Positions 1-45,258 of a DNA stretch of 64,000 nt are shown piece by piece (positions within the stretch are counted from its first letter, which is position 1; every line of letters starts with the position of its first letter). This DNA comes from an uncultured Armatimonadetes bacterium (GTDB lineage: Bacteria > Armatimonadota > Hebobacteria > Hebobacterales > Hebobacteraceae), in NCBI GenBank assembly GCA_963716175.1, contig OY970296.1:2240001-2304000 (forward strand), given 5' to 3'. Below the pieces are notes generated by a model. That model was not told the origin of the DNA, ran no database searches, and worked only from the letters and a program-made list of their open reading frames with translations. The position numbers and the translations under genes were made by a program.

Positions 1-1218
1 CCCATACGGCGCCTGGTGGCCGAGCAGTTGTCGCGGCGGTCCACGTCCGCTGAGTCGGCCCTGCCGCTTCTCGGCGCGCTCTGTTCAGAGGATGACGCTC
101 TCGCTCGCAGTTCGGCCGCGGTGGGACTGGTCATGCAGACGGCAGCCGCTGGCAAGAGCACCGACAGTGTGATCGAGTTCCTGCAAACGGAAGCGACCTG
201 CCTTGGGTTCGAGATGAACAAGCGTAGACCTGCTGGTGTAGCTGGACTGCTCGAGGGAGGTAAGGGCACGGACTTGCTGCAGTACGTGACCGAGTCTCGG
301 GTCGGGAACCCATTCGAAGCAGTCTTCAACGTCCTTCCTCCCAACCTGCCTGCTCTTCGCCTCCTGGCGTCACAATGGCCAATGATGAAGGCAGATCTGC
401 CGACGGGTGCCTCCGCAACTCTCGGCATCAGCGAGGACCGGTTCTGGGAGTTCATGTCGTCATGGGTCGAGGAGTTCCCCGACCTGCGCTCTGACTTCGA
501 GACATACGCCGTGGACGCGTGCCAGAGGCCGCTCGCCGCTGCTACGCTAACAGCAATTGCCAACGTCAGGCCCCAGTCCGAGGTCCTCCGAAGGGCCTGT
601 CTCTCGACGCTGAAGGCGGTCGAGGAGAACCGCGGCTGGCTGTCGTGGGGAGTTGCTGCTCGCCTGATCGGCAGTCACTTCGGTGGGCAAGATGCCGTTC
701 TGCGCGAGCTAACGGAGATCGACGCGTCTGGTCGCAACTGGGTGGTCACACTTGCCCTGTCGTGGGGCTGGCCGGACTCGGAGGCGTTCAGGAGGCGCGT
801 CGAAGCAGTTCAGGGTCAACGCATGCCCTGGCTGCTGTACCTGCACCTGGCGCGCGTTCTCAAAGAGCCGACTCGCCTAGTCGATGGCGCGATGGAGTAC
901 GTAACACAGTGCGCACAGGGCGCAGTCCACAGGGATCCCGAGGTCGTTCATGCTGTCGCGCTCGGCATCCAGGAATCCGACGTGGTGAGGGGCGGGATCA
1001 TCAGTTGGCTATCGGAGGCACCGGATCTGGCCGTGACAGCGATAGGCCTTCTTCGAGGCGCGGAGATGATCACTCCTGGGCTGCGCGACGAGTTCGCTCG
1101 CATCCTGCACAACGAGGCTACCGAGTCGGTACCGCCTGTGGTCGGGTACGATCTGGTTTCCGGATCTCGTCGATCGCTGGCAGAGGCCGCGTACGCGGCC
1201 CTCGCCGGGGCCCGCTGA
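1..1218 (+). CDS. C-terminal part of a large alpha-helical (HEAT-like) hypothetical protein, 5'-truncated by the window edge
   Basis: Frame is open from base 1 to TGA at 1218; Leu/Ala-rich amphipathic helices; no catalytic motif visible. Confidence 0.6.
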   Translation, partial: PIRRLVAEQLSRRSTSAESALPLLGALCSEDDALARSSAAVGLVMQTAAAGKSTDSVIEFLQTEATCLGFEMNKRRPAGVAGLLEGGKGTDLLQYVTESRVGNPFEAVFNVLPPNLPALRLLASQWPMMKADLPTGASATLGISEDRFWEFMSSWVEEFPDLRSDFETYAVDACQRPLAAATLTAIANVRPQSEVLRRACLSTLKAVEENRGWLSWGVAARLIGSHFGGQDAVLRELTEIDASGRNWVVTLALSWGWPDSEAFRRRVEAVQGQRMPWLLYLHLARVLKEPTRLVDGAMEYVTQCAQGAVHRDPEVVHAVALGIQESDVVRGGIISWLSEAPDLAVTAIGLLRGAEMITPGLRDEFARILHNEATESVPPVVGYDLVSGSRRSLAEAAYAALAGAR

Positions 1219-1441
1219 CGGGTTGGTCACGAGCGCGCGATGCTTGGCGAGGGCCGTGGAGCGACTGGTGAGCAGTGGCCGCGCACGGCATTCCACACCG
1301 GCTCGACAACCGGCCCCAGGGGCCCAGGGGTGCTGTTCCACCTTGGCGCGGAGGCAACCACGTGTGGCACAGTCTCGCCCGGCAGCCGACAGTCAGTGTC
1401 AGCCATGGTGTCAGTCGATGGCTGTCCGGTCGCGGCAGGTC

Positions 1442-1579
1442 CTAGCCGACGCCCTGGAGGCGATTCGCCGGCAGGTCGGCAACCTGAGCCTGCAGGTCCT
1501 CTACCTCCAGGTGGGTGTAGCGCTGGGTGGTGGTGACCCAGGCGTGGCCCAGCAGCTCCTGCACTGCCCGCAGCCGGGC
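1442..1579 (-). pseudogene. Displaced duplicate 3' end of the tyrosine recombinase gene
   Basis: Translates ARLRAVQELLGHAWVTTTQRYTHLEVEDLQAQVADLPANRLQGVG*, matching the C-terminus encoded at 2359-2484 in 36/37 aa (about 82% nt identity). Confidence 0.9.
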
Positions 1580-1601
1580 GATGCCTGCAGGCATTCGCTT
1601 T

Positions 1602-2252
1602 CTAACGGCTATGGCGTGCTTCCATTTCTCGCGCGGCGACCTCGAATGCCTTTATCCTGGCGCGACATTGGCGTATGGACTCCCGGTGCCACTCTGCTTC
1701 TTCAGGATGCAGGCGCATGTTGTCCCTCGTTTCCAGCAGACGATCCTCCAGCCAAGAGATTAGCCCTCTGGCAAATCCCCATTTTGCCGCATAGGCGTCT
1801 GCCTCCAGTTGCATCCGAAACTGCTCGGTGTCTGAGTACTCGTCCGCGTCTATCGTGCATTGATGTCCGGCTATCGCATGACCCATCTCATGTGCAAGCA
1901 TGCCAACAGCCGCGGTCAAGTCCCCATCAAAGTAACCTAACTCGAGAGGAAGCCACCCTATGGTAATGTGATAGGTTCGCCCATAGGGGCCTGTCACCTC
2001 AGCGTTTCCGGGGTCGCGGAGACCATCGGGCAACAGCATGCAAACATAGATTGCCGGCCGGCCAACACGAATCCGCTGCCAATCTTCGTCTGGGAGAGCA
2101 GTCACAAGCTCCACCAGTGCGGGGTTGATTCTCCGGCGAGCTATGGCCCCCAAGCGTCGGTACTCGGGCGTGATCTTTTTGCGACATAGGCCCATCAAGG
2201 GTCGGAAGTGCCTGCGAACCCATTGCCGACGCGCAAGGTCGCGTGTGCGCAT
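1602..2252 (-). CDS. Zinc metallopeptidase (M48 / ImmA-IrrE-like)
   Basis: AHEMGH (HEXXH) motif followed by LEADAYA; SD-like AGGAGG upstream of the ATG. Confidence 0.7.
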   Translation of the reverse strand: MRTRDLARRQWVRRHFRPLMGLCRKKITPEYRRLGAIARRRINPALVELVTALPDEDWQRIRVGRPAIYVCMLLPDGLRDPGNAEVTGPYGRTYHITIGWLPLELGYFDGDLTAAVGMLAHEMGHAIAGHQCTIDADEYSDTEQFRMQLEADAYAAKWGFARGLISWLEDRLLETRDNMRLHPEEAEWHRESIRQCRARIKAFEVAAREMEARHSR

Positions 2253-2358
2253 CTTGTATGCCTCCTACGCTATCAGACTGAACTACTCCTCGGACACCGA
2301 TCATTGTAGCAGACAGACATGGAGTGGGGGTGGCAAACGAACTGCCGTTGCTCGCTCG

Positions 2359-3312
2359 TCACAGCCGGCAGTGGTTGGCAGGTAGCTCTGCCACCTGTGC
2401 CTGCAGGTCCTCCACTTCCAGATGAGTGTAGCGCTGAGTGGTCGTCACCCAGGCATGTCCCAGCAATTCCTGCACCGCCCGCAGGTTGGGCCGGGCGCGC
2501 AGGGCGTGGGTGGCGAAGGTGTGGCGCAGCAGGTGGGGGCCGGAGCGATCGGTGATGCCGGCCGCCCGCAGGTATCGGTTCACCAAGAGGGCAATGCCCC
2601 GCGCCGAGAAGCGCCCCCCGCTGCGGTTCAGGAAGAGCGCCGGCTCCGTCCCTAGACCTGACGGCCGGGATGGCGGCCCGCTGGGCCTGGCCACATCATC
2701 GCGGTCCGCGAGGTAGGCCAGGAGCGCGTCGGCCGCCGGGCGGTTGATGGGCAGCCGGTGTAGCCGTCGGCCCTTGCCCACTACCTGCAGGGCGCCCCAG
2801 CCCTGGGCGGGCAGGCTCACGTCCTCACGGCTGAGGGCGCACAGCTCCCCCACTCGCAGGCCGGTGTTGTAGAGCAGCATCAGGATCGCCCGGTCCCGCC
2901 GGCCCCTGGGGATATCGGGGGAGGGCAGGGAGAGCAGGCGCTGGACCTCGGCGACGGTGAGGTGCTTGGGCGCCAGCGGCGGACCCAGGCGGATGGAGCG
3001 CAGCGCCTGGGCGGGGTTAGCCTCCAGCCGACCTTCCTCGAATAGGAAGCGGCAGAACGAGCGCACCGCAGCAATGGCGCGGTTGATGCTGGATGGCGAT
3101 CGGCCCGCCTGCTGCTGATGGCGGAAACACTCGCGCAGGTCCGCCGGCCGCACTTGGTCGAGCGGCCCGGGCAGGGCAGCGAGCACTGCTTCCAGGTCCC
3201 TGCGGTAGGCCCGCACCGAGTGGGCCGACCGCCCCTCCAGCGCCAGCGCCCCCAGGAACTCCTCCAGCTCCCGCTCGTCCGACTGCCGATCACGCCGCTG
3301 CTTTCTCGCCAC
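2359..3312 (-). CDS. XerC/XerD-like tyrosine recombinase
   Basis: N-terminal SAM-like region (SAHSVRAYRRDL); catalytic motifs TGLRVGEL, VVGKG, HLLRHTFATH, LLGH, TTQRYT; start placed at GTG 3312 behind AAGGAGG. Confidence 0.93.
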   Translation of the reverse strand: MARKQRRDRQSDERELEEFLGALALEGRSAHSVRAYRRDLEAVLAALPGPLDQVRPADLRECFRHQQQAGRSPSSINRAIAAVRSFCRFLFEEGRLEANPAQALRSIRLGPPLAPKHLTVAEVQRLLSLPSPDIPRGRRDRAILMLLYNTGLRVGELCALSREDVSLPAQGWGALQVVGKGRRLHRLPINRPAADALLAYLADRDDVARPSGPPSRPSGLGTEPALFLNRSGGRFSARGIALLVNRYLRAAGITDRSGPHLLRHTFATHALRARPNLRAVQELLGHAWVTTTQRYTHLEVEDLQAQVAELPANHCRL

Positions 3313-3555
3313 CTTCGCCTCCTTCTGACTCAGGCCGTAGTTCCGATAAGACATAGGGGCGGATGTTGGCCAACCCGTCAAGGCGGTCTTGCTCGCGATG
3401 ATGCGGGAACTGGCCCACAGACGGCACGACACGCCGCCCCCACGCGGCGAGAACGCCGCGAATGGTGGAAGGCCGAGGCGCAGCACCAACCGGCCGCCGA
3501 AAGCCCAACACAGGCGCCCACGGCGCGCCGTTCGCGGCCCCGGGCGCACCCCGAG

Positions 3556-3750
3556 ATGGTCACAGTAGCGATCCGCGGGCCACTGGCGAGGAGAATGCGG
3601 GATATGGCTGAGAGTCACGGGATGAGCTTGTCCAAGTTCCTCAGGGACGCGATCTTGGTGTACGAGCGCGACGTCGATGCCGGGTACGAGCCGGGCACGT
3701 CGCTGGCGAACTGGACCGCGCGGCAGGGCGATCAGGGAACCGGCGCCTGA
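3556..3750 (+). CDS. Ribbon-helix-helix (CopG-like) DNA-binding protein
   Basis: MVTVAIRGPLARRMRDMAESHGMSLSKFLRDAI fits the beta-alpha-alpha RHH pattern; divergent from the recombinase; start uncertain. Confidence 0.6.
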   Translation: MVTVAIRGPLARRMRDMAESHGMSLSKFLRDAILVYERDVDAGYEPGTSLANWTARQGDQGTGA

Positions 3751-3904: not shown

Positions 3905-6895
3905 TCACCTCGGGCTCTCCTCCGAGGCCCCCGATAGGTCGTGCTGAGGCGGCTGTAGATCGGCTACGCAGACGGCTTCGGCAGGCGGTGCGTCGAACCT
4001 GATCTTCTCCTCGACCACAACGCGGGCAAGCGTCCGCAGTCGGGTCTCGTCCGCGTCCGGGTAGTGCTGCTTGGCAGCATCCACGTGGTCGGGAACGACC
4101 TGCTCGACCGACAGGATGAGAGGTCGGATGTCATGCAGTGTGCAGTTCCCGACGAGTTGCGCCACGATCACCTGGCCGTTGATCTCCAGTGACGCGATGA
4201 CGGGAATCTGCCCGAGAATCCCCACCAGATCGGGCTCGACGTCTTGGTGTCTCACCTGCCAGCCTGGGGTGATGCCGGGCAATGCAAGGCACTCGTCGTG
4301 CAACTGCCAAGGCACAAGTATCGTGTCTGGGCGGAAGTGCTTCCCTACTCGTGTCACCCCAGCATCGATCGCGGCAGCCAGTGACGCGGCGGTAGTGCGC
4401 TCAGGAGCACTCATAAGGCCCTTGATGATGAGATCGGTCTCGCGTGCGGCGACTGACCTGCCGAAGTTGTCAGTAAGGTTGATGCAGTGCGCTTTCGGGT
4501 CATCCGTGAAGGGGTCTTTGTCCATGATAAGGGCGAATCCGACCTTGGTCTGGTGTGAGCTGTCGAGTTCCGGACTGCTTCTAACACAGCCGAATCTGCG
4601 CAGCCATGATCGGATGCTACTGGCCTCAGCAGCACGCAGCCTGATCTCAGATTCGATGCCACGAACCTTCGCTTCGGAGATCGGCATAGCGGCTCTGCGC
4701 TGCGCCTCGTGCAGCTCATAGGCGGCAGCACTAGCGTGGACCCAAGCCTTGAATGCCGAGACTCGGATGGGGACGGGTGGCCCGATCACCCGACCCCATA
4801 TCTCGGCTTCCCCCCCGATTTGGTCAGCAACCTCCCCCAGAAGCTTCGCTGAGTGTGCGAGGGCCTCCGCGGGGATCGCCGGGGGAGAGGTTACCTGTTC
4901 GTCTTGCAGAGACAACGCTCTCATGGCCGAGACCGCCAGGGCCCATGTAGGTCCGGTAGTCGTGTCGACCCAGTGCCCTCGCCTGGTATCATACTCTGGC
5001 GAGTCCTCCAGCATTCGTCTCACGGAACCTGGCATGTCCACCACTTCGGATACCGTCTCGAATGAACGTGTAAGGTCCTCCACGCTGTGGGGCAGAGGCT
5101 GCGTCGCGTTGAGCAGACGCTGCGCCTGCTCCGCATCAATCTGCTTCTGACTGAATCTACCGACGATGAACCCTGCCAGAGCCAGTGCGTAGAGCCGCGG
5201 GAGCGCGGTCATCTTCTCTCCAAAGTCACGGACGGCGTCCGCTAACGCGCCTGTGTCACGTGACGACTGTACTGACCTGAGACTGCGGTCACCGCTTTCC
5301 GCGATATGAACACACAGCTGCATCAACTCATCGGTGTCCCGAAACTCGACCGCGAGCTTAGCCATGTCAGCCAGGACGTCCATGGCATGAAGTGTCATCG
5401 CGCCGATATTGACCAGATGCGTCAGCCTGGACTCGTCCAGTCTGCGCCACTCGGAGAGCTGAGGGCGTAGGTGATAGTCAAGCAGATCGCGTACGTACCT
5501 GTGGCATCTGTCCTTCGTGATCACGCTACCGGCCTGGAGGCCCTCGTAGTACATCCCCAGGTAGATCCCGCAGAATCGAGTGAAAGTCATCAGGTCGCCG
5601 CGGGTAACTGCCGCCTGAAGCATGCCGTAGAGGTCGTACGTAAGCTGGCCGATGAAGTCGGGTTCGCCTGACTTGACGACCGCCCGACCAAGGTCCCGTA
5701 GATGAATCTCCACAAGGCGGACACAGTGGAACTCGGAGAAGGGCTCCGACACTTGATCCGGCCCAAACATCAGCCCGACCCGCTCCAGCCGGGCCCCCAG
5801 GTCCTCGATAGCACTCGTCATCGTGCGTACCGCGGTCCTGAACGCAGGTATATCCGCCGACCGCAACGCGTTCATTGCCATAAGCTTCAGTACGTCCAAG
5901 CAGGGCCGCACGTCGGGCCCGGTGTATGACCTGCTTAGCACGACGCACCGGTCCACGAGCCGCTCCAGCCTGGCAACCAATGGCTGTGCGTGGAACGTGG
6001 CAAGAGCATCGCTCCCGGCCTTGATAGATTGTCCGAGCCTCACTAGGAGAGCCGGCTTCTGTCCAGTCTGTGAGTCGTCGGGCCGCGCTCCTACGACCTT
6101 CGCTAACCGACGCAGAGCGCCGAGATCCACATCAACTACGGTGCCACTGCGCCGAGCTACGACACGTGTTTGGTCCGCAGTGGCTGGCTCGGAGCCGAAC
6201 AGGTTCCAGCGGATGCCGACGCTTTCACACTCCCCGCGAAGGATGTTGTGTGCGGCCCTGAAGAGGATGTCATGGTAGACGTGGTTGCGAACCGCCCTTT
6301 CCGTCCGAGCAGAGATTGCACGCGCGGCGTAATCGTGGTCCAGCAGCCTTAGCACTCGCGCGGTGAACGCGACGGTACGCAAGGCTAGTGCAAGAGCCAC
6401 CAGCGGTGCTAGTATCAGCGCGTCACAGAGGACCGCGGAGTCATCAGGCTTCAGCCCAGTGGCTGCCCTCGTAGCGCCGAGGAAGGCAACGACCGCGATC
6501 ACATACCCGATCAACTCTATTGGACGCCGCGCTGCCAGCGGGCCGAATGCAAGGCCCAGTTGCGGCTGCCTCTCAACCCAACCTGCGAGGAAGATCGTGA
6601 ACGGTATCACCAACCCGACGAATGTCACCGTCACCTGGGTCCAGAATTGGACGAGTTCTGATACCGCCGACAGACGCCACTCCGCGGGGATGACTGCCAG
6701 ACGCGGGAACTCAACCCAGCGCGCCGCCACAAACCAGACCGCGGCCAGCAGCCAGAGACTCCAGCCTAGCCAGAAGTCCAGGTCGTCGCGCAGCTTGGCC
6801 AGGAACTGACCGCGTGCGAGTTCCTCGTAGATGCCGTGCTGTTTCAGCAGCTTGACGGCCGCGCCTCGTGCTGTCCTGCGCCGTCGCCAAGTCAC
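3905..6895 (-). CDS. Large membrane protein: N-terminal TM helices (DUF2254-like), helical middle, possible encapsulin/HK97-like C-terminus
   Basis: 996-aa ORF with about four hydrophobic segments in the first 190 aa, then RRSGTVVDVDLGALRRLA...LLVRLGQSI (DUF2254-like); start uncertain. Confidence 0.7.
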   Translation of the reverse strand: MTWRRRRTARGAAVKLLKQHGIYEELARGQFLAKLRDDLDFWLGWSLWLLAAVWFVAARWVEFPRLAVIPAEWRLSAVSELVQFWTQVTVTFVGLVIPFTIFLAGWVERQPQLGLAFGPLAARRPIELIGYVIAVVAFLGATRAATGLKPDDSAVLCDALILAPLVALALALRTVAFTARVLRLLDHDYAARAISARTERAVRNHVYHDILFRAAHNILRGECESVGIRWNLFGSEPATADQTRVVARRSGTVVDVDLGALRRLAKVVGARPDDSQTGQKPALLVRLGQSIKAGSDALATFHAQPLVARLERLVDRCVVLSRSYTGPDVRPCLDVLKLMAMNALRSADIPAFRTAVRTMTSAIEDLGARLERVGLMFGPDQVSEPFSEFHCVRLVEIHLRDLGRAVVKSGEPDFIGQLTYDLYGMLQAAVTRGDLMTFTRFCGIYLGMYYEGLQAGSVITKDRCHRYVRDLLDYHLRPQLSEWRRLDESRLTHLVNIGAMTLHAMDVLADMAKLAVEFRDTDELMQLCVHIAESGDRSLRSVQSSRDTGALADAVRDFGEKMTALPRLYALALAGFIVGRFSQKQIDAEQAQRLLNATQPLPHSVEDLTRSFETVSEVVDMPGSVRRMLEDSPEYDTRRGHWVDTTTGPTWALAVSAMRALSLQDEQVTSPPAIPAEALAHSAKLLGEVADQIGGEAEIWGRVIGPPVPIRVSAFKAWVHASAAAYELHEAQRRAAMPISEAKVRGIESEIRLRAAEASSIRSWLRRFGCVRSSPELDSSHQTKVGFALIMDKDPFTDDPKAHCINLTDNFGRSVAARETDLIIKGLMSAPERTTAASLAAAIDAGVTRVGKHFRPDTILVPWQLHDECLALPGITPGWQVRHQDVEPDLVGILGQIPVIASLEINGQVIVAQLVGNCTLHDIRPLILSVEQVVPDHVDAAKQHYPDADETRLRTLARVVVEEKIRFDAPPAEAVCVADLQPPQHDLSGASEESPR

Positions 6896-6928
6896 TGAGT
6901 GGCTCGATCCATGCCGGCGTCTCCTTGG

Positions 6929-9616
6929 CTAAGGCAGTTCCTGCGCGCTAGTCACGACCTTGTAGTTCACCCCAAGTGCGCCCCCAAAATGCTTCTCCCC
7001 GCATTCGATCTTCCGGCGTTCGTCGGGCCTGAGTCTGGAGCGGTCGGTCGTGTCCTTCGTTTCGCGGACCAGGTACAGGAGAGGCCGGCCGCGTGCGTCG
7101 CCGTGCTCATCACGATCCTCCATGACGATGGCCCAGTCGGGGTTGTACTCGCCCACCGGCGTCGGCACCGTGAACCACGAGGGCAGCTTGAGATACAGGC
7201 GCACATCGTCTCGCCGCTCCAGCCCTCGCACGAACTCGCGCTCCGTCTCGGACTCGAAGATCACGTGGTCATACACAGAGCGTTTGGCCGGCACCAGGTA
7301 CTGCTCCCAACTCTCGATCTCGCCATCGAACTGGCACATCTCATACCACTCGTCGATCCGCTCGTACTGGATTCCGGCGACGAGCTGGTCGGCCAGCTTC
7401 TCCTTGGCGATGCGAACCGCCTCGGTGGCGAAGCCGTGGGGGTTGTCGAGCGCGGCCTGCTTCTGCGCACTGCGACGGAAGATCTCCAGCAGCGTCCGCC
7501 GAGTCAGCCGAACGGGCGGCGTAGTGTGAAGCAGAAGATGCTCCATCAGCCCGACCAGATTGGGTGAGACGTACCTCCCACGCAGCTCGATAACCGTCCT
7601 GGTCGCGGTTGCCTGGCGTGCCACGAACTCGTCTGCGCCTTCGACTTCCAGCTGCGCCTTGGTGATGGTGACCCGGGGTGGCGCAATGGTGATCCTGTCC
7701 AACTCCGCCACGACCTCGGCGATCAGGCGCTCGGAGTCGATCCTGACGGCGTAGCGCGTCTTCTGCTTGATCTTGTCCCACAGATCTCTGAACTCGGGCC
7801 GCAGCGTGTATTGCTTGCGCAGTCGAGCGGTTCGGCGCTTCCGCGCGTTGGCCGGCTTCGGCGGCAGACCTTCCATGCCGTACTCCGCCTCGATCTCGGA
7901 TTGCAGACGCTCGACATAGCGCTCGTAGCTCTCGTTCGCGACCACAGTCAGGACGTTGATCTGCTCATCGTGTACTCTGTCGCCGTTCTGGTTGACGGCA
8001 AGGCGCACGCCCCTGCCCACCTCCTGCCGCTTCTTCATCTCTGAGACAGTCTGGTTGAGCGTACAGATCTGGAAGACGTTTGGGTTGTCCCACCCCTCGC
8101 GGAGCGCCGAGTGCGAGAAGATGAACGCGGTCGGCTCATCAAATGAGAGCAGGCGTTCTTTCTCCTGCATGATCAGTTCGTATGCTTCTCGGTCCCGTTC
8201 GGCTTCGCCGGTCCTGCTGTCCTCGTAGACGACCTGACCGGCGCGGGTGCGGCGCTGAGCGAAGTAGGCTGCTTGGACAGCGGCCGCGTCGACCTCCCGG
8301 AAGCCTGAATGCTGGGCCTTCAGGTCAGTGAACGCCTCGTTGAAGAGCCGACGGATGATACCGTCCTCCCGAACATAGTTGTCGACTCGGTCGATGAAGA
8401 ACAGAGAGAGCACTTTGATGCCGGCGGCGCGCAGTCGCGCCTGCTTGCGCATGTGCGCTTCCACCGTGTACCGGATCTGGGCCGCGAAGATAGCGTCCTT
8501 GTCGGCGCCTTTGGTCTCGCCGAGGCGGAGTTCGTCGTCATTCGCGAAGGTCACCACGCCCGCGGCCGCGTCGATCTCGTCCACCACAAACGGGGCGTAC
8601 TCCGGTCGCCCGGCCTTCTCCTCAAGGCGGTCGCCAGGGTGGGCCGTGACCACCTGCTCCTTGACCGTACCGTTCTTCATCAGCTTGTGGAGCGCGATGC
8701 GCGCGGTAAGCGTTCGCTTTTCGGCGCGAATCTGGTCCAGGCGAAGGAAGGGAAGGTTCTCATCGTCTGACTGGACGACCGACCCTACCTCTATCCGCTT
8801 GACCAGTCCCTGTCGGTAGGCCTCGAACGGCGTGAGTCGGTAGACGACGTTGTAGGGATTGCGATGGGTGGCGCTGTAGCGCAGGGCAAATAGCGGATCG
8901 AGCGCGGCCAGCGCGCGCACGCGCAGTTCGCTCTCCATATTCTGGGGTTCGTCCAATATCAACACGGGGCGGGCTGCCTGAACCAAGTGGATCGGCGTCT
9001 CGCCCTGCAAACGATCGGTGCTCTGGCGGATGACATTCGACGCCTTGTTGAAGGAGTCAATCGTCATCACCATGATCTCGACACCGTCGGAAAGAGCGAA
9101 CTGCCGCACCTGGGAAAGATTGGCCGAGTCGTACACGTAGTAGCGGTAGGGCGTATTCCCGTAGAGCTCGCGTAGATGCTTCTCCGTTACCTTGAGCGCC
9201 TTGAGCACGCCCTCCCTCACGGCCACGGACGGCACCACGGCGATGAACTTCCGCAGACCATATCGCCGGTGGAGCTCGAGCGCCGTGCGCAGGTAAACGT
9301 AGGTCTTTCCGGTTCCGGTCTCCATCTCCACGGAGAAGTTCCCGAAGCGCACCTGCTTGTTGCCCTCGACCGTCTCGATGCTCTCCTCGATGACCTGCAA
9401 CGCGTCGTCGGTGGGCAGCCCGTTCTCGCGCTGGACGGCCTGGAGGTTGGAGAGTAGGGCCGCCTCGTCCAGGTCAAGCCGGTTCGGCACGGCGGCGAAG
9501 CCACCGAGCGAGAACGACAGGTCGGCCTCGTTGCGAGGCTGGCCCTCGAGCAGCCCCGCCACTGCCTCGATGGCCCGGATTTGGTATTCCTGGTTGGCGT
9601 CGAACTTGAACTGCAT
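6929..9616 (-). CDS. res: Type III restriction endonuclease Res subunit
   Basis: SVEMETGTGKTYVY, LILDEPQN, FSHSALREGWDNPNVFQICTL, QEVGRGVRL and C-terminal YNPDWAIV...RETK nuclease motif. Confidence 0.96.
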   Translation of the reverse strand: MQFKFDANQEYQIRAIEAVAGLLEGQPRNEADLSFSLGGFAAVPNRLDLDEAALLSNLQAVQRENGLPTDDALQVIEESIETVEGNKQVRFGNFSVEMETGTGKTYVYLRTALELHRRYGLRKFIAVVPSVAVREGVLKALKVTEKHLRELYGNTPYRYYVYDSANLSQVRQFALSDGVEIMVMTIDSFNKASNVIRQSTDRLQGETPIHLVQAARPVLILDEPQNMESELRVRALAALDPLFALRYSATHRNPYNVVYRLTPFEAYRQGLVKRIEVGSVVQSDDENLPFLRLDQIRAEKRTLTARIALHKLMKNGTVKEQVVTAHPGDRLEEKAGRPEYAPFVVDEIDAAAGVVTFANDDELRLGETKGADKDAIFAAQIRYTVEAHMRKQARLRAAGIKVLSLFFIDRVDNYVREDGIIRRLFNEAFTDLKAQHSGFREVDAAAVQAAYFAQRRTRAGQVVYEDSRTGEAERDREAYELIMQEKERLLSFDEPTAFIFSHSALREGWDNPNVFQICTLNQTVSEMKKRQEVGRGVRLAVNQNGDRVHDEQINVLTVVANESYERYVERLQSEIEAEYGMEGLPPKPANARKRRTARLRKQYTLRPEFRDLWDKIKQKTRYAVRIDSERLIAEVVAELDRITIAPPRVTITKAQLEVEGADEFVARQATATRTVIELRGRYVSPNLVGLMEHLLLHTTPPVRLTRRTLLEIFRRSAQKQAALDNPHGFATEAVRIAKEKLADQLVAGIQYERIDEWYEMCQFDGEIESWEQYLVPAKRSVYDHVIFESETEREFVRGLERRDDVRLYLKLPSWFTVPTPVGEYNPDWAIVMEDRDEHGDARGRPLLYLVRETKDTTDRSRLRPDERRKIECGEKHFGGALGVNYKVVTSAQELP

Positions 9617-9626
9617 CCCAGGTCCC

Positions 9627-11519
9627 TCAGATCGCCTTCAGCCTGCACTGCAGGGCCAGGTTCGCTGCCAGGCTGTCGTCGAGCGCGACGTCCCGGCAGA
9701 TGAACAGATCATCCCTCTCAAGATTGAGGCTTCGGATCGCCTCGGGGTCAAGCGTAGCATCCAGGCAGATACGGAAGCTCTGCTCCTTGTCTGGGTCGGT
9801 CACTCGCCAAAATGTGTTGCCAGAAGTATCCTCGACTCGCTCGACCTGGCAGTTCAGACCGAAGCCCTCTTTGACCGCGACCTCCCAGATCACCCGCTCA
9901 GGCATCCAGCCGTCCACCAGGGGGTCGGAGAGCATGCCCATCTGCGACGCGTAAGTCTCAGGTGCGTCGCCGGAGGGCGGCGTCCATTGTCGGAAGCTCG
10001 ACTCGGTCAGTCTGTAGACGCGGAATCCCAGATCCTCGGGACTCTCACGCTGGTCGAGGCTTTGCTGGCCACCGTCAGCGTTCTCAAACTTCCGGATCAC
10101 GCGTCGAATGCGCTCCCTGCCGATATCGGCGATGGTGCGCAGTTCGACTCCGTTGTCCAGTGGTTTCGGAGCATCGAGCGGCTCGGGTAACTGCACCATG
10201 ACGAAACGCCTGTCGCCACCGTCTTCGCGGTTCTGCTCAAGGACGGCCTGGGCCGTTGTGCAGGAGCCGGCAAAGAAATCGAGTACGACATCTCCGTGCT
10301 CAGCGTCCATCCCAATGTTAAGCAAGCGCTTCATGAGGGCGACCGGCTTCGGGAACTGCATCACGACCTGACCATCGAATAGGCTGGTCAGGTCGTCCGT
10401 CCCGTGCTGTGTGTATATGCCGTCGATTATGGAGAACGGCTTCATGCCACGTTTCTCCCCGCTCTCGTCTCTCAGGTACTGCTTGTACGACACAGTGACT
10501 GAGTCCCCGTCTCCAGTGAAGACGATCTCGTCGTTCGCCACAGCGCGCATCACGCGATCTTTGCCCCACCACCACTGACGCCTCGGCCAGACTTCACCGC
10601 CCTGCGGAAGCGGGATCGGGAACACCAGGTTGTCCCGCCTGTCCATGCTTTTCGTCGCCTCGAGCGGCTTCAAGCGGTACGGACCTCTGGTTTCGATCTT
10701 GCCATCTCGGTACTTGTAGTACCGCCGCTCCGTTTCAGGGTCGGGGGGCAGCCACAGATCCTCAAGGAGATCGCCTGCACGGGCATAGAGAAGGATGTAC
10801 TCGTGCTGGGTAACCGCGTACTTCTCTTTGGCACCGCCACCGTAGCTCTTCTTCCAGACGAAACACTCGATGCGGTTCTCCTCCCCGAACACCTCGTTCA
10901 TCAGCATGCGAAGATTGTGGACTTCGTTGTCGTCTACGGAGGCGAAGATCACGCCATCCTCGCAAAGCAACTGGCGCGCTAGGAAGAGCCGTGGGTACAT
11001 CATGGACAGCCATGCCGAGTGATAGCGGCCGCTCGTCTCTGGATTCGTGTTGAGGAGATTGCCTTCGGTATCCTTCTGGCCGGTGAGCTGAAGGTACCTG
11101 TCCAGCGGGTCGGCATAGTTATCGGGGTACACGAAGTCGTTGCCCGTGTTATACGGCGGGTCAATGTAGATCATCTTCACCCGCCCGAAGTAGGCCTTAT
11201 AGAGGAGCTTGAGCACCTCCAGGTTCTCGCCCTCGATGAACGCATGCTGCGTGTTCTCCCAGTTCGCCGACTCTTCGGGGCACGGATTCAGAGCGGCCCG
11301 GCTGGGGGTCTGGAGAGCGCGAATGGCGTCCTGCTTGCCCGCCCATGTGAAGGAGTAACGCTCGGGCCGTTCGTCCACGATCTCGCCGAGCGTGGCGCGC
11401 AGGCGGTCCCAATCCACTCGTCCCTCGGAGAAGGCATCGGGGAAGATAGCACTCAACCGCTCGATCTGGTCAGCGATCAGATCGGGCGAAGTCCTTGCGA
11501 CCTTCTCGGCTTTGCTCAT
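9627..11519 (-). CDS. mod: Type III RM adenine methyltransferase Mod subunit
   Basis: IEGENLEVLKLL, IYIDPPYNTG (motif IV), FPKP, VLDFFAGSCTTA (motif I); directly upstream of res. Confidence 0.96.
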   Translation of the reverse strand: MSKAEKVARTSPDLIADQIERLSAIFPDAFSEGRVDWDRLRATLGEIVDERPERYSFTWAGKQDAIRALQTPSRAALNPCPEESANWENTQHAFIEGENLEVLKLLYKAYFGRVKMIYIDPPYNTGNDFVYPDNYADPLDRYLQLTGQKDTEGNLLNTNPETSGRYHSAWLSMMYPRLFLARQLLCEDGVIFASVDDNEVHNLRMLMNEVFGEENRIECFVWKKSYGGGAKEKYAVTQHEYILLYARAGDLLEDLWLPPDPETERRYYKYRDGKIETRGPYRLKPLEATKSMDRRDNLVFPIPLPQGGEVWPRRQWWWGKDRVMRAVANDEIVFTGDGDSVTVSYKQYLRDESGEKRGMKPFSIIDGIYTQHGTDDLTSLFDGQVVMQFPKPVALMKRLLNIGMDAEHGDVVLDFFAGSCTTAQAVLEQNREDGGDRRFVMVQLPEPLDAPKPLDNGVELRTIADIGRERIRRVIRKFENADGGQQSLDQRESPEDLGFRVYRLTESSFRQWTPPSGDAPETYASQMGMLSDPLVDGWMPERVIWEVAVKEGFGLNCQVERVEDTSGNTFWRVTDPDKEQSFRICLDATLDPEAIRSLNLERDDLFICRDVALDDSLAANLALQCRLKAI

Positions 11520-11737
11520 GCTCGCCTCCTTCGTGCAGACTGCGCGGGCACGTTCGCCTGCGCAAGTTGCACCAGGAACGCTTCAAGGTCCTCGCGCCGG
11601 TAGAGTCGGTAGCGGTTCATCGGGTTGCGGATCGCGGTGAGTTTCCCGGCGCGATCCCACGCACGCAGAGTGCTGGTCGAAACTCCGAGCAACTCCGCCG
11701 CTTCATGAATCGTCAGGTAGTCCTGGATCGTGCGCAC
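11516..11737 (-). CDS. MerR/excisionase-type HTH protein heading the mod-res operon
   Basis: YLTIHEAAELLGVSTSTLRAWDRAGKL...NRYRLYRREDL; stop overlaps the mod start (ATGA); GTG start behind GGGAG. Confidence 0.88.
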   Translation of the reverse strand: MRTIQDYLTIHEAAELLGVSTSTLRAWDRAGKLTAIRNPMNRYRLYRREDLEAFLVQLAQANVPAQSARRRRA

Positions 11738-11767
11738 GATCTCCCTCACACCCCCTCGTAGCTTGGG

Positions 11768-11800
11768 TGACATTATGTGAGGTTGCACGCGCAATGTCAA
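11768..11800 (-). promoter_or_regulatory. Sigma70 promoter of the HTH-mod-res operon with overlapping inverted repeats
   Basis: Minus strand TTGACA-17 bp-CATAAT; inverted repeat TGACATT (11768-11774)/AATGTCA (11793-11799); TTGCacgcGCAA in the spacer. Confidence 0.75.
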
Positions 11801-11956
11801 ACGCTGCCAGCGAGGCGCCGGGTGGCCGCCGTGACCGGCCGGTCTCGGAACACGCGAGTCGCGGTCGGACGCGGGGCTCGGCGTATCAGAACCCGGTGAT
11901 CACAGTTGGCGCGCTCCATTAGCAGGACTGCCACTCATCCCGCCGAAGCGTCCTCG

Positions 11957-12004
11957 GCGACGGCCCCGCGGTTCCCTTAGCTCCGGCTGGCGGCGCTCGG
12001 GGGT
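11957..12004 (+). repeat. Dispersed hairpin repeat, copy 1 (very degenerate)
   Basis: GCGACGGCCCCG...CTCCGGCT...CTCGG matches the family's left end and core. Confidence 0.5.
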
Positions 12005-12036
12005 ACCCACGAGCTGAGGCAGGAGGGGGAGACAGA

Positions 12037-14454
12037 ATGGCTGTTGCCAAGCCACGCTCGTTTCCGCTGTACGATAGGGCCCGCCAGGCTGGTGTCCTGG
12101 ACGACGGCAGCGCTCTTATCGTTGCACCAACAGCGACGGGCAAGAGCTACATCGGCCGCATGATTCTTCGCCAAGCAGTGGGGAACCACGAGCCGGGCAC
12201 CCATGCCTATCTTGTCCCGTATCGCGCCCTGGCGGCCGAGATGTATGACTCCTTCCAGCATGAGTTAGCGGCTGACCAGCTGGAGGCTCGCGTACGGGTG
12301 GCGACAGGAGACTACACAGACCCCATCCAGCCTCAGGAGACCGATATCCTGATCGCCACCTACGAACGATTCGCGGCGCTGATGCGCATGCCAGAGCTAG
12401 CGCTTGGGCGGGTGGTGGTAGATGAGGTCCATTTGGTGGCCGATCAGACGCGCGGGCCGGTGCTGGAGGGGCTGCTGGCGCGCATGGAGAGCCACAAGCG
12501 GCCACGCTCGTTGTGCGCGCTTTCGGCGGTGGTAGCGAATCCGGAGGCGTTGGGCCAATGGCTAGGGGTGCCGGTGTTGCTCGGCACCGCGGAGGACCGC
12601 GCGGTGGCGGTGGACATGCACTGCGAGGAGACCGATGACCTGGATACCGCCCTAGGTCAGGAAGTGCAGTCTGTGCTGCAGCACGGAGATCAGGCCGTCA
12701 TCTTCTGTCACTCTAAGGCCTCGTCGCAGCGCCTGGCGCGTGACTTGCAGCAGGTCGTGGCAGGATACCTCACAGATGACGACAGAGGGGAACTGCGCGA
12801 TCTGGTGGCGCGGGTTTCCGAGGATGATGAAGACGCAAAAGACCTGCACGCATTGCTATCAGGTGGCGTCGCCTTCCACCATGCCGGACTCTCCCGCGAG
12901 TCACGTGCGGCGGTAGAGAGCGCCTTTCGCGAGCGACACCTCAAGGTGATCGCGTGCACGCCCACGCTCGCCGCAGGGGTGAATCTTCCAGCGCGCCTAG
13001 TGGTTGTGCGCGACGTGTTCCGCACAGAGTTCACCCGCGGTTTCCCGCAGGCGGTGATGCTGTCGACGGGGGAGCTGCTCAACATGCTGGGCCGAGCGGG
13101 ACGCCCAGGGCAGGTCGAGAGCGGACGCGGTGTGGCCCTCGTCAAGAACGGTGATCTGGAGAAGGACGAACTGCGGGAGCTTCAGGTGGCGATCCGGGAA
13201 GGCCGCGGCAATCCCGTGACGAGCCGTCTGCCAGACTCCTTCGACGCGCTGATGCGGTTCCTGCTCTCCGTGGCGGCCGACCGTGGCGAGGCAACGCTGG
13301 CGGACCTGGCGGCGGCGGTGAAGGGCACGCTCTGGTTCCGGGAAGACCCGGACGAGATCGTCTTCGACCGGCCCTTCGAGGCCGATATCATGGAGGACAT
13401 CGAGTCGTACGCTCGCGTCACGCCGGACATGCGCGTCGAACGAGCCTGGCCCGTAGCGGACGGAGTGGCGGGGTCCGTGGCCTCTGGCGACAAACTCTAC
13501 AACTTCAGCCTCCGTTTCAGCGGAGAGGACTGCACGTGCCCGGCGAAAGCCAAGTGGCAGCGGCGCAACATCTGCAAGCACCTCGCCTGCGCTATCCACA
13601 ACCTGCTGTTCGGCACCGGCGTCGATGCGGAAGTGCGCAGCCGCGCCATCTATGCCTCCGCGCACCGGTTCCGGCGGACGCTCAATCTGGGCACGAAGAT
13701 CCAGCAGGCAGTGCGACTGCTCGACGCATGGAAACTGCTTGAGCCCGTGCCGGGCGCCTACCAGGCAACGCCGGTCGGCGCGCTCGCGGCGAACTCGAGC
13801 CTCGACTTGCTTCTCATACGTGTCGCTGATGAACGCATCCGCGGGTGCCGCCGCGTGCCGACGCCGAAGGAGGTGGCAGGCTGGATCGTGGAGGATTACT
13901 TCGGCGATACTGCCAAACGCGAGCGTTGGGAGCGAGCAGTGGAGCCCTGGGTCGACGAGGTGGAGGAGCGGCGCATCAAGCTCCCCGAAAAGTACCGCGG
14001 CGACTTTGAGCGGGGTCTGGAGCAGCTCGGCCAAGTGGCCTCGCTCTATGGCGAGATCGCAGAGAGCCTGGGTAAGCCGGAGGTGGCCCAGGTGTGCCGG
14101 CTCACCCGCGGCTGTCTCCAGTATGGCGTGGCGCTAGAGCTGATCCCGCTGGCCGCGCTGCGCATCCCGCAACTCGGTCGCGCACGCTGCCGCTTCCTCT
14201 ACGACGACCGCGGCATTCGTGGCCTAGAGGAGCTGGCACACGCCGATCCGCAGGCGCTGGCGGGCCCGCGTGCCCCTGCCAGCATTGCGCAACAGTGGGT
14301 GGAGACGGCGCGAGGCATGTGGCAAGCGCGTGGGCATGTGCTCAGGCTGCCAGAGGAAGACCGGGCCAGGGGCATCGACGACTTCCTCTCGCAGTTCCAG
14401 GTCGATCAGCTCTCGCTCTTCGGCGAGAACGGCGTGATGGGTGAGGCGGCGTGA
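12037..14454 (+). CDS. Ski2/Hel308-like SF2 helicase with inserted SWIM zinc finger and C-terminal HhH
   Basis: APTATGKS, VVDEVH, ALSA, FHHAGL, TPTLAAGVNLP, MLGRAGRP; CTCP...CKHLAC (SWIM); RIPQLGRARCRFLY (HhH). Confidence 0.92.
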   Translation: MAVAKPRSFPLYDRARQAGVLDDGSALIVAPTATGKSYIGRMILRQAVGNHEPGTHAYLVPYRALAAEMYDSFQHELAADQLEARVRVATGDYTDPIQPQETDILIATYERFAALMRMPELALGRVVVDEVHLVADQTRGPVLEGLLARMESHKRPRSLCALSAVVANPEALGQWLGVPVLLGTAEDRAVAVDMHCEETDDLDTALGQEVQSVLQHGDQAVIFCHSKASSQRLARDLQQVVAGYLTDDDRGELRDLVARVSEDDEDAKDLHALLSGGVAFHHAGLSRESRAAVESAFRERHLKVIACTPTLAAGVNLPARLVVVRDVFRTEFTRGFPQAVMLSTGELLNMLGRAGRPGQVESGRGVALVKNGDLEKDELRELQVAIREGRGNPVTSRLPDSFDALMRFLLSVAADRGEATLADLAAAVKGTLWFREDPDEIVFDRPFEADIMEDIESYARVTPDMRVERAWPVADGVAGSVASGDKLYNFSLRFSGEDCTCPAKAKWQRRNICKHLACAIHNLLFGTGVDAEVRSRAIYASAHRFRRTLNLGTKIQQAVRLLDAWKLLEPVPGAYQATPVGALAANSSLDLLLIRVADERIRGCRRVPTPKEVAGWIVEDYFGDTAKRERWERAVEPWVDEVEERRIKLPEKYRGDFERGLEQLGQVASLYGEIAESLGKPEVAQVCRLTRGCLQYGVALELIPLAALRIPQLGRARCRFLYDDRGIRGLEELAHADPQALAGPRAPASIAQQWVETARGMWQARGHVLRLPEEDRARGIDDFLSQFQVDQLSLFGENGVMGEAA

Positions 14455-17275
14455 TGAACCTGACGGAGGCCCAGCAGAGGATCATCGGCATCTCAGCTCC
14501 GGCGCTGCAGATCCTCGCTTGTGCCGGCTCCGGGAAAACTGAAGTGCTGGCCCGGCGAACGGTGCGGTACCTCCTTGAAGGTACGCCTCCAGAGACCATC
14601 GTCGCCTTCACCTTCACCGAGAAGGCGGCGGGCGAACTCAAGGACCGCATCGAGCGCCGCGCCGCCGAAGCCGATGTCCGCTTCGCGGCGCTGCCGCCCT
14701 CGGCTTCGGGGATGTTCGTCGGGACTATCCACAGCTATTGCCTGCGAGTGCTCCAGCAGTATGGCGGCCACTACGAGGCCTACGAGCCGCTCACGGAAGA
14801 GCGGGAATGGGCGCTGCTGCATCGGTTCGCGCGGCGGCTGGGCATGGTCGATCTGATGGAGCAGGCCTGGCCGGGCGCGCCGGTCTCGGTGCGGCGGGCG
14901 GTGGAAGTGTTCCGGCGGAGCATGGCCGTCGTCTGCAATGAACGCATCTCACCCGAAGTCCTGGAACAGCGCGCACCAGGGCTCGCAGAGGTGATGCGTC
15001 GCTACCGCGAGCTGCTTTCCGGGATGCGACTTCTCTCCTTCGATGAGATGGTCGACTCGGCCTGCGAGGAGCTAAGGCCGGGGGAAGACTCAGGGCAGTG
15101 CTCGATGGGAAGCTGCGGGAGGTGCTGGTGGATGAGTACCAGGACTTGAACCGAGCGCAGGAGGAGCTGCTGCAGCGCTTCCTGGAGATGGGCGCGCGGC
15201 TGACTGTGGTCGGCGATGATGACCAGGCGATCTACCAGTGGCGCGGTGGAGATGTCTCGCTGTTCCTCCGGTTCGTCGAGCGCTACGATTCGGCCCAGCG
15301 GCATGAGCTAGCAGAAAACCATCGCAGCTTGCCTGCCATCGTGCACACCGCGGCCGGCTTCGCGGAGAGTATTCATGAGCGAGTATGCAAGGCGATGTCC
15401 CCGGCGCGTGCGGAGGAATGCCCTGCGGTGGAGATGATGGCGGCCGGCACCGTGGAGGCGGAAGCCGAAGCCCTAACGCGGCGCATCTGCACACTCATCC
15501 AGAACGGCCATCGACCTGCCGACATCGTTGCGCTCTTCCGCTCTGTGCGCACGTCCGCGCGGCCGTTCGTGGCGGCGCTAAGGCGAGCGGGTGTGAGGGT
15601 GGCGTTAGTCGGAAAGCTCTCGCTGCTGGATCGCCCTGAGATGGCGCTGCTCGCGCGTATCTTCGTGCTCTGGGTCGGCGGCACATGGTACCCCGACGAG
15701 GCGCAGGAGGTGGTCACGCCAGAGCGGCTCGCCAGGGACACTGCAGACCTCACCGGCGTCAGCGATGTGGACGCCACACGCATCGTCGGCAAGCTAGAGC
15801 GGATGGGCGAGGAGCTACGGGCGACCGAGGTTCGCGACCTGGTCGGCACGTACCTGACGATGCTCCAGCTCATCGGCCTTCCGATCGATGAACCAGAGCG
15901 CGCTCGACAGGAGCAGGGCCTGGGACGCCTCTCGGAGCTGCTGGCGGACTTCGAGCACGCGCAGCGCCGACTCATACCGGCGGGGCTGTTCGCACAACCT
16001 CAGCCGTCTGCGGCTGAGGAGACTGCTGAGGACAATCTGCTGCTGGCTGAGGCCGAGGCAGCACCGTCCATTCGTATGGAGCGGACGCGCGGCGAGGTGT
16101 TCCTCGTGCGCCTGCGAGTCTTCCTGGAGGAGTTCGCGGCGCAAGCAGCGGAAGAGGCGCCCGAGCGCCCGACGCTCGACGAAGGCGCGGTGAACGTAAT
16201 GACCGTTCACCAGTCCAAGGGACTGGAGTTCCCCATTGTCTTCGTCCCGTGCCTGGTGGAGCGGCGCTTCCCATCCGCCCGGATGGGGCAGGCGCAACGC
16301 TGGCACATACCCGACGACCTCTTCGACAGAGCGCGCTATGAGGGCCGCGAGGACGACGAGCGGCGCCTCCTCTACGTGGCTATGACTCGGGCCCAGGAGC
16401 TGCTGGTGCTGAGCTGGTTCACCCAGTACGCGAGCGGGCCGGCAACGCCCTCACGCTTCCTGCAGGATCTCATGCCTGCGCGACAGCACTTGGCGCATCC
16501 TGGCATGTGCACCCCAACTGTCCGTCCTGGCCCCGAGGGTGGCGAGGCCGTCATCGACACCGACTTCGCAGCCCTCCTTACCTTCAGCGAATGTCCCTAC
16601 CGATACCGTCTTCGCTATGTGTGCGGGTTCCAGCCGCCCATCGATCCAGCCCTGGGCTTCGGCCGTCTCTTGCATCACACAGTGGCCGAGCTTGCTCGCC
16701 TGGGGCAGCGCGGCCGCGCACCGACAACTGAGGATGTGGACGAGATCCTGCAGAGGTCGTTCTACCTGCCGTTCGCCGGGCTCGGCTCGCGGGAGCGCCT
16801 CTACCGGTCGGCCCGGCAACGCCTGAGGAAGTACGTCCGGAGATACGGCGAGGAACTCGTGCGCACAGCCGAGCCGGAGCGGCGCTTCGAGGTTCCATTG
16901 GAGGCCGCTCGTGTCCGCGGTCGCATCGATCTGGTCTTGAGCGCGGACGGGGGCAGTCGAGAGGTGGAGCTGATCGATTTCAAGACGGCCGTCAACCGTC
17001 CCCCAAGCGAGCATCACAAGAACCAGCTCCGCGTCTACGCGGCTGCGATGCGGACGCTGGGTTACCGGCCAGTGCGTCTCTGGATTCATGACCTTGACAG
17101 CGATGAAAGCCGGCGCGTGCTTGTCGAAGAAGACGAGAGGCAGGCCGCGCAATTCCGAGGCCTGATGCAGGGGTGGATCAACGGCGTCCGCGGGGGCCAG
17201 TTCCCCCGCGTCAAGGATCGGGCAGCTTGCAGGGGCTGCGACTTCACGCGCCTCTGCCCTCGACCGTTCGAGTAG
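14454..17275 (+). CDS. UvrD/Rep-like SF1 helicase fused to PD-(D/E)XK nuclease; single-base frameshift at the G-run 15080-15084
   Basis: ACAGSGKT, FTFTEKAA, GTIHS in the first frame; VDEYQD, VVGDDDQAIYQWRG, ENHRS, MTVHQSKGLEF, YVAMTRA, GRIDL...IDFKT and Cys motif CPY...CRGCDFTRLC in the second; one added G joins them (RPGGRLRAVLDGK). Confidence 0.9.
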
Positions 17276-45182: not shown

Positions 45183-45258
45183 TGGTGCCGGGTCCCAGAG
45201 TCGAACTGGGGACACCCGGATTTTCAGTCCAGCGCTCTACCACCTGAGCTAACCCGGC
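45183..45258 (-). tRNA. trnF: tRNA-Phe (GAA)
   Basis: 76 nt; acceptor stem GCCGGGT/ACCCGGC; D arm GCTC/GAGC; anticodon loop CTGAAAA; GTTCGA T loop; encoded CCA. Confidence 0.96.

Follow-up and report, generated by a model that had tools for sequence, protein, structure and literature searches.

The window analysed here is a 64,000-nt stretch of genome G000 from an uncultured Armatimonadetes bacterium (C1:2240001-2304000; genome of 4.56 Mb, one contig), and this report concerns an integrase gene within it and a second, orphan copy of that gene's 3' end on the same strand. The intact gene (2359..3354, minus strand) encodes an Xer-like tyrosine recombinase (integrase) of 331 amino acids (aa) and stands at the end of an island of defence genes. 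Its product matches Phage_integrase (PF00589, E = 2.1e-33) and Phage_int_SAM_1 (PF02899, E = 3.5e-16), the pairing of catalytic domain and N-terminal SAM-like core-binding domain that defines the tyrosine recombinase/phage integrase superfamily, and its translation contains HLLRH, LGHAW and RYTH, which we take to be the catalytic motifs. It scored below the XerC and XerD equivalog cut-offs (TIGR02224, 233 bits against 335; TIGR02225, 222 bits against 330). Downstream of it lie a gene for an HEXXH metallopeptidase-like protein (1602..2252, minus strand) and then the orphan, a 5'-truncated integrase 3' end (1442..1580, minus strand; homology from about 1580/1573 to 1460) with the tail RLQGVG*.

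The attached copy of the repeat (2375..2484, minus strand) consists of the integrase gene's own last conserved codons, LRAV...LPAN. It forms with the orphan a direct repeat of 110 nt (1464-1573 and 2375-2484; 83% identity, spacing 911), and blastn of the region against the whole genome gave E = 8.5e-25 for the pair. In a codon-by-codon comparison (2484 to 2374 against 1573 to 1463), 20 of the 37 codons, and 20 of the 111 nt, differ; 19 changes are silent and one is an E/D exchange. Both copies encode LRAVQELLGHAWVTTTQRYTHLEVEDLQAQVA[E/D]LPAN, which takes in LGH and the RY tyrosine. Codons ending in A or T are more frequent in the attached copy (11/37) than in the orphan (5/37). The orphan lacks 6 bp (GTTGGG on the plus strand) and adjoins a perfect 14-nt palindrome, ATGCCTGCAGGCAT, read directly at 1581..1594. 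Between the two copies there is a single sizeable open reading frame (ORF), the 216-aa peptidase gene with the motif HEMGH, and the G+C content of the insert is 55-60% compared with 70-75% in the body of the integrase gene. The repeat pair, its codon differences and third-position bias, the 6-bp gap, the palindrome and the lone HEXXH gene had all been described in an initial annotation made from the sequence, and each was confirmed. A diversity-generating retroelement, with template and variable repeats, was considered and rejected on reading the sequence, no search for a reverse transcriptase having been made, since all 20 differences fall at third positions, comprise changes of every kind and are silent in 19 cases. 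Compared with the tails of 95 family genes the orphan is on average 87% identical (maximum 92.7%), and 83% identity between attached copy and orphan is ordinary for two members of this family.

The peptidase gene is a single-copy gene of low G+C content and has no Pfam or NCBIfam family match. Weak leads to M48 and ImmA/IrrE-like zincins came from a PDB profile search (M48, E = 0.014), from PHROG matches at E >= 0.0017 and from Atlas neighbours at 0.93-0.94, some of which carry U49, M78 or M48; the HEXXH motif is present, but no ImmA/IrrE or M48 profile match reached the family threshold. Among the 400 other genomes sampled from the phylum, 3 have a homologue, in one case at E = 2.4e-4. The homologues in G142 and G316 are 47% and 38% identical, and a separate scan of genome contigs led to the same two loci, while a word-index search with the window peptidase returned only itself. 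Neither G000 nor the phylum genome sample yielded a second copy of the peptidase unit, and nor did the word-index search. In G142 (L055, 5140-6699) the 47% homologue lies 120 nt beyond a gene for a 237-aa tyrosine recombinase that has the catalytic domain only, and ParB_N and AAA_25 genes adjoin the pair. Because this homologue lies directly behind a tyrosine recombinase gene, the peptidase gene is regarded as a mobile-element gene, and the pairing of recombinase and peptidase may be a conserved module.

The integrase family is present at E <= 1e-80 in 6 of the 31 genomes of the class, with a maximum of 8 matches in one genome (G011). G000 contains a second full copy (C1:808878-809816, 88% identity to the window integrase) and six places with 3'-only fragments, five of them lone and the sixth being the orphan. 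These fragments start at codons 100, 225, 248, 280, 291 (orphan) and 299, and every one reaches the C-terminus; no 5'-only (N-terminal) family fragment was found in G000. Three of them (C1:2102485-2103163, 1952890-1953060 and 2113833-2114148) have a common frameshifting 19-nt insertion, in which a 16-nt hairpin-forming piece is joined to a duplicated TTC; it looks like a footprint or a very small palindromic insert. The arms of this hairpin start with ATGC, as does the palindrome at 1581-1594. A further fragment, at C1:92300-92422, matches together with the adjoining MFS gene a stretch of L070 (10001-12338) in which a full integrase gene (tail LPANLVA.TSYHPRPS.H*) and MFS_3 are present, so that one genome has the full gene and the other the relic alone.

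The layout of the window is recurrent: an intact Xer-like integrase gene is followed by an insert of 0.5-4 kb and then by a same-strand, 5'-truncated integrase 3' fragment. When five relatives were searched at the DNA level, two contigs, both from Armatimonadota, proved to have a fragment on the same strand behind an intact copy (G005:C306, 4.0 kb downstream; G018:C77, 1.9 kb downstream). Among metagenome loci, for which the best 80 of 243 candidates were taken, 11 combine an intact integrase with a downstream fragment of 65-95% aa identity, two of them (L070 and L105) with two fragments each, and three more have a fragment of 47% identity. In none of the 80 does a family fragment lie upstream of the integrase or on the opposite strand. 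The loci are partly dependent, L066 being identical to G005:C306 and L109 to L110, and L059 and L106 representing one event. Neither G000 nor the loci of the 95 copies contained a remnant with the last 37 nt alone, an absence that is not significant with 19 fragments. Public reads from 20 runs held at most 0.22 of the sampled words, and the organism appeared in them as short low-depth contigs, none of which spans a junction; read "joints" that skip 932-944 nt have sides of 18-24 nt and 21-33 foreign letters and are therefore attributed to recombinase genes of other organisms.

The inserts at these loci differ in content. That of G018:C77 is one TPR/membrane gene without its last ~5-15 codons that reads into the integrase fragment, and that of G005:C306 comprises a response regulator and a histidine kinase. 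Others carry a DUF4062 protein, a PEP-CTERM protein, an MFS transporter, a PCMT methyltransferase or a protein beginning in sigma-70 region 4, and further inserts hold MraZ with a phosphate-binding protein, or an AAA_14 ATPase with an IS110 transposase. The cargo lies on the integrase strand at 7 loci and on the other strand at 7. The initial annotation had anticipated the same layout with other cargo as well as arrays of fragments, and both were found, on the two Armatimonadota contigs and in the metagenome loci, L070 and L105 providing the double cases. Its further proposal of a cassette that targets the recombinase gene does not agree with cargo this heterogeneous, on both strands and including the IS110 transposase and truncated genes, nor with lone fragments that have no intact gene upstream.

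On its other side the orphan faces a conserved chromosomal flank. After a spacer (1219..1441) comes the 3' part of a convergent gene for a 1626-aa protein (1..1218, plus strand). In L125/L126 an intact family integrase gene (tail QHTS*) is followed after 155 nt by the orthologue of this flank gene, with 82% nucleotide identity over 4.9 kb, so that the orphan of the window holds the place next to the flank gene that the integrase holds there. Upstream of the integrase L125 has a type I restriction-modification (R-M) system and the window a type III system; with different islands and related integrases beside one flank gene, a single chromosomal site must be shared. Similarly, the integrase of L067 ends in RFRGAG*, as does the orphan of L094, and the common flank starts exactly at that point. 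The empty alleles predicted in the initial annotation are thus represented by empty-like relatives (L125/L126 for the window, L067 for L094), and the copy that adjoins the conserved flank is the orphan. Family integrases often adjoin the 3' ends of genes for SLH-type surface proteins (..TRDQMA.Y.ARAF.LP.*), among them those at C1:809909-812938, 1953138-1955861 and 2111157-2113175 of G000, and in L074, L116 and L136 a same-strand SLH 3' end lies ~0-100 nt after the integrase stop codon. The conserved end of the SLH genes may be the primary integration target.

These patterns bear on an explanation without any site-specific history, in which some unrelated deletion or insertion cut a neighbouring paralogue, and two paralogues simply happen to flank the peptidase gene. 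Small repeats and insertion sequence (IS) elements are active in these genomes, and the many decayed copies in G000, three of them with the common 19-nt insertion, would fit such a process. However, all 19 independent fragments keep the 3' end, those near an intact copy are all downstream of it on the same strand, and related integrases with different islands occur beside the same flank. Fragments of the 3' end only, on one strand and beside a shared flank, point to ordered integration at one site, and we regard a history of unrelated deletions as quite improbable.

The point at which element and neighbouring DNA meet was located by comparing closely related loci. The integrases of L059 and L106 are ~90% identical and the DNA upstream of them is unrelated, whereas downstream, across insert and fragment, the two loci are 97% identical over 1515 nt (98-100% in 50-nt bins). 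The gene's final 300 nt, ending at LPAN, contain 32 mismatches, the last of them at the third base of the Asn codon, 2 nt past the mark set for the end of LPAN, and the next 198 nt contain none. The break therefore falls inside the integrase ORF, 10 codons before the stop codon and right after LPAN, and the last 110 nt belong at these loci to the integrase and not to the insert. In L074, L116 and L136 the flank, which opens with the 3' end of an SLH-type gene, is 92-100% identical and the integrases, including their last 110 nt, are 78-92% identical; the switch occurs 18-92 nt after LPAN. Pairwise divergence among 85 unique family genes stays at an even level along the gene body (0.07-0.32 in 30-nt bins) as far as about nt 975, just beyond the LPAN codons, where it rises to ~0.6, the tails after LPAN being hypervariable across the family. 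None of these comparisons, neither the two sets of loci nor the 85-gene profile, shows a junction at the start of the 110-nt block. At many family loci (L065, L097, L061, L066, L102 and G000 C1:809816-809850) the motif CCTCCTAGYCGGAGGTnAGTGC lies across the integrase stop codon, which explains the recurrent ..AS* tails; both copies in the window lack this motif (CCTCCTAGYCGGAGGT), for which the window contains one match with 3 mismatches, at 45507, where 1.55 are expected by chance.

Taken together, the orphan is most likely what the decay of an island left of a second integrase gene of this family, namely its 3' end. The fuller scenario, to which we assign a probability of about 60%, is that related islands integrated serially at one site and that one of them decayed to a stub made up of the peptidase gene and an integrase tail. 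Integrases of this family would occupy the extreme end of an integrative island or prophage-like element, with the junction between element and neighbour at or just past the LPAN codons, so that the short C-terminal tail would be encoded by neighbouring DNA. Through accretion, related elements would enter one site in turn, all in one orientation and head to tail, and internal deletion would then shrink one of them to a stub that keeps cargo by one junction and an integrase 3' end by the other. In the window this stub would be the 911-bp unit from about 2374 to 1464, consisting of the post-LPAN tail with its spacer, the peptidase gene, a putative deletion junction, marked by the palindrome and by the absence of 6 bp, and the final 37 conserved codons of the dead integrase. 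The tail HCRL* and the 106-nt spacer (2253..2374, minus strand) would form the junction between the intact element and the stub, a position that we infer from L059/L106 and from the end of family homology. The attached 3' end would then be the intact gene's own, and the synonymous differences would exist because both copies once served in working genes of two diverged elements. The recurrence of the scar, its variable break points and the conserved flank beside the orphan are observed directly, as is where the break lies in L059/L106; we infer the sequence of events, and that this copy was produced by deletion and did not arrive already in stub form. A possible full-size counterpart of such accretion is seen in G011. 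There a terS-like/ParB-methylase module follows each of four integrase copies, which are spaced 36-44 kb from one another on a single strand and probably represent a tandem array of related full-size, prophage-like elements; the interval as a whole (C1:1737000-1897000, L137-L145) has five repeats of the module and the four integrase copies, all on one strand.

Several observations weigh against serial integration and decay. The clean break after LPAN comes from one near-isogenic pair only, whose fragment is of the long type (from nt 542) while that of the window is short, and the end of homology at LPAN in the wider family could partly reflect loss of coding constraint alone; since such a loss could by itself give the jump in divergence, the near-isogenic comparisons weigh more. 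The LPAN region is present at both ends of the stub, that of the attached copy in diverged form (CTACCTGCCAAC, then CTGCCGGC), and the second CTGCCGGC, directly after these diverged codons, is the only shared core of at least 8 nt that was found when the two post-LPAN segments were compared. The far end of the island yielded no further copy of a core, and no repeat of at least 12 nt from the integrase or orphan ends was detected elsewhere in the window beyond chance 12-13-mers. A possible terminal inverted repeat (1216-1229 and 3367-3380) is one 14-nt pair among 24 reported.

The positions of the junctions are a further difficulty. The 19 independent fragment starts, each preceded by unrelated sequence, are spread over gene nt 300-896, but 6 of the 19 fall within the 16 nt of gene nt 856-871, at the start of the repeat, and random deletion predicts no such cluster. 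The cluster coincides with a quasi-palindrome, GCGCCCGG-CCCAAYCT-GCGGGCGG, with 8-nt arms and an 8-nt spacer; three junctions lie inside the spacer, and the 6 bp missing from the window orphan are part of it. Moreover, the junction is at most ~25 nt from the 3' end of the cargo gene in both the window and G018:C77, which is tidy for random deletion. Candidate sources of the cluster are a secondary site of recombination, deletion promoted by a hairpin, or selection for a minimal site.

Base composition is the last of these points. G+C at third codon positions (GC3) is 0.69 in the attached tail and 0.88 in the gene body, the largest drop among 95 family genes, for which the difference between tail and body has a mean of +0.03 and a standard deviation of 0.057. 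The change point lies after codon 295, near the start of the repeat (codon 291), with a log-likelihood ratio of only 3.6, and the drop would fit a tail imported along with the low-G+C insert. Such an import was proposed in the initial annotation. In the form considered here, an integrase-less circle that carried the peptidase gene and an integrase 3' end, running from about codon 288 to its stop codon, would have recombined with the resident gene at the quasi-palindrome of codons 286-293, so that the attached tail would be imported and the orphan would be the resident gene's original end. Besides the GC3 fall and the junction cluster, this model is favoured by the resemblance between ACCTGCGGGCG at the quasi-palindrome and ACCTGCCGGCG at LPAN (10 of 11 positions), by the junctions tight against the end of the cargo gene in two loci, and by the G142 locus, where the peptidase homologue lies directly behind a tyrosine recombinase gene as the layout of a donor needs. 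The excised circle is identical in either crossover register, and the cassette and the stub therefore differ only in that register and in whether the unit still moves.

Other results do not agree with an imported tail. The attached tail of the window is as close to the family (0.833) as the body is (0.830), and a search for a donor, by nearest-neighbour identities among the family genes, found no lineage closer to the tail than to the body. The L059/L106 break is at LPAN, the exact end points within the cluster vary by 15 nt, and 13 of the 19 junctions lie elsewhere. Neither codons 284-293 nor LPAN show extra constraint at the DNA level: top-codon frequencies are 0.53-0.93 over codons 284-293 compared with a gene median of 0.78, so that synonymous sites there are not unusually conserved. 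The cargo is heterogeneous and in both orientations, and the peptidase unit lacks a second copy in the searches described above. A precedent for such an import is provided by phage 21 and e14 in icd, where the element brings the attached copy of the gene end and the crossover is at the 5' edge of the repeat. The window resembles these cases in that a direct repeat of a coding 3' end (110 nt, 83%) flanks the inserted DNA at both ends and the copies differ by synonymous changes. It differs in that the sole mapped break, in L059/L106, is at the 3' edge, with the last 110 nt differing like the rest of the gene next to an insert that is 97-100% identical, and in that fragments start at many positions. 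Neither the scattered starts nor the break after LPAN supports a crossover at the 5' edge of the repeat. For the window itself the recoded replacement 3' end fares less clearly, because the GC3 drop weakly indicates it and junctions do cluster at the start of the repeat, yet the tail is as family-like as the body and no donor emerged. On balance we consider an imported tail unlikely.

The hot spot also allows an extension in which the unit is still mobile. The last ~115-130 nt of the integrase gene would double as an attachment site, stubs trimmed to this length (nt 856-871) would stay recombination-competent, and the gene would head an integron-like 3' array of integrase-less cassettes that are excised and reinserted by crossover inside its own reading frame. 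If this were true, an integrase-tail repeat would close each cassette, and the enzyme would be the bacterial parallel to those archaeal integrases whose site lies in their own gene, yet one that never inactivates the gene. In integrons, an Xer-related tyrosine recombinase gene heads an array of short gene units, each ending in a repeat. The window differs from them in several respects: its integrase reaches 67 bits against the cut-off of 265 for the integron integrase TIGR02249, in a match limited to residues 258-312; the units lie 3' of the gene and not 5'; the cargo is of mixed orientation; and the repeats are gene relics of variable length. We hold this reading to be doubtful, and the junction hot spot, the one statistically odd feature, keeps it alive as an outside chance.

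Serial integration and decay, the reading we prefer, is a familiar process for integrative elements, and its scar recurs across this bacterial group. As outlined for streptococcal integrative and conjugative elements (ICEs) of the ICESt1/ICESt3 type, an element integrates, decays to one without recombination genes, and a further related element enters at the attachment (att) site, giving rise to tandems (PMC5704250, citing Pavlovic 2004 and Bellanger 2011). The window is similar to that description in that an intact integrase-bearing island adjoins a stub with cargo and no working integrase. The stub holds the peptidase gene and a 50-codon integrase relic only, with the intact integrase and its island upstream; as in cis-mobilizable elements (CIMEs), a remnant without working recombination genes thus lies beside an element with a related integrase, and with a repeat copy at each end its predicted anatomy resembles theirs. 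It differs from the systems covered there in that the repeat is the integrase gene's own last 110-400 nt instead of the end of a tRNA or other target gene, in belonging to Armatimonadota, and in that its att sites are putative. At ssrA of Dehalococcoides, according to PMC3146451, tandem islands are bounded by direct repeats of the gene's 3' end, and some without integration modules were proposed to be cis-mobilizable; there the repeat is 20 bp of the transfer-messenger RNA (tmRNA) gene and the enzyme a serine recombinase, while here the repeats are relics of a tyrosine recombinase gene. "Suicidal" archaeal integrases of the SSV type carry attP inside the integrase gene (PMC8371274). Their gene is split by integration into int(N) and int(C). 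The break within the integrase ORF of L059/L106 recalls them, but in the family studied here only the dispensable tail past the last conserved codons changes, and a split integrase of this kind was rejected for it, as no N-terminal-only fragment occurs in G000 or the 80 loci.

Other features of the window complete the picture of the island. Divergent from the integrase gene and conserved with it is a gene for a 48-aa ribbon-helix-helix-like protein (3604..3750, plus strand), which has a weak RelB-antitoxin match (E = 0.0057); tblastn detected it at 70% identity beside the second full integrase copy, and nucleotide homology over 3429-3736 is 74%. Within the integrase gene itself lies a short genome-wide repeat (2648..2692) of 34-45 nt, in a 51-nt in-frame extra segment of the ORF, with at least 9 other matches in the genome at 87-94%. 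The same insertion is found in the fragment C1:2113833-2114148 and not in the second full copy; it seems that a small dispersed repeat landed in frame inside the coding gene. Upstream of the integrase the island cargo (3905..17275) includes genes for a 996-aa protein, type III R-M (res, 6929-9616; mod, 9627-11519), an HTH_17/MerR protein (11516-11800), a helicase and UvrD-PDDEXK proteins. The part from 6929 to 17275 is a defence-type island with res, mod, HTH_17/MerR, a DEAD helicase and a split UvrD-PDDEXK nuclease-helicase. Elsewhere in G000, adjacent pairs of recombinase genes with 34-38% identity to the window integrase (C1:2841600-2843323, 2959772-2961492 and 3032209-3034004) are possibly elements of the recombinase-in-trio type, and in L060, L097 and L119 similar recombinase trios are found on the upstream side of the integrase. 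The sole transfer RNA (tRNA) gene in the window is tRNA-Phe (GAA) at 45183-45258 on the minus strand.

The locus illustrates serial island integration and decay in a little-studied phylum, Armatimonadota. The C-terminal tail of the integrase appears to be rewritten by each neighbour, and the junction hot spot at the quasi-palindrome raises the question of where this Xer-like enzyme cuts; the cassette reading would gain interest if that site were active. Because the scars are the integrase's own 3' ends and not the ends of tRNA genes, the fragments can be used as markers of island hot spots in such genomes, where they record the exchange of defence genes, type I and type III R-M among them, and of small cargo genes at one site.

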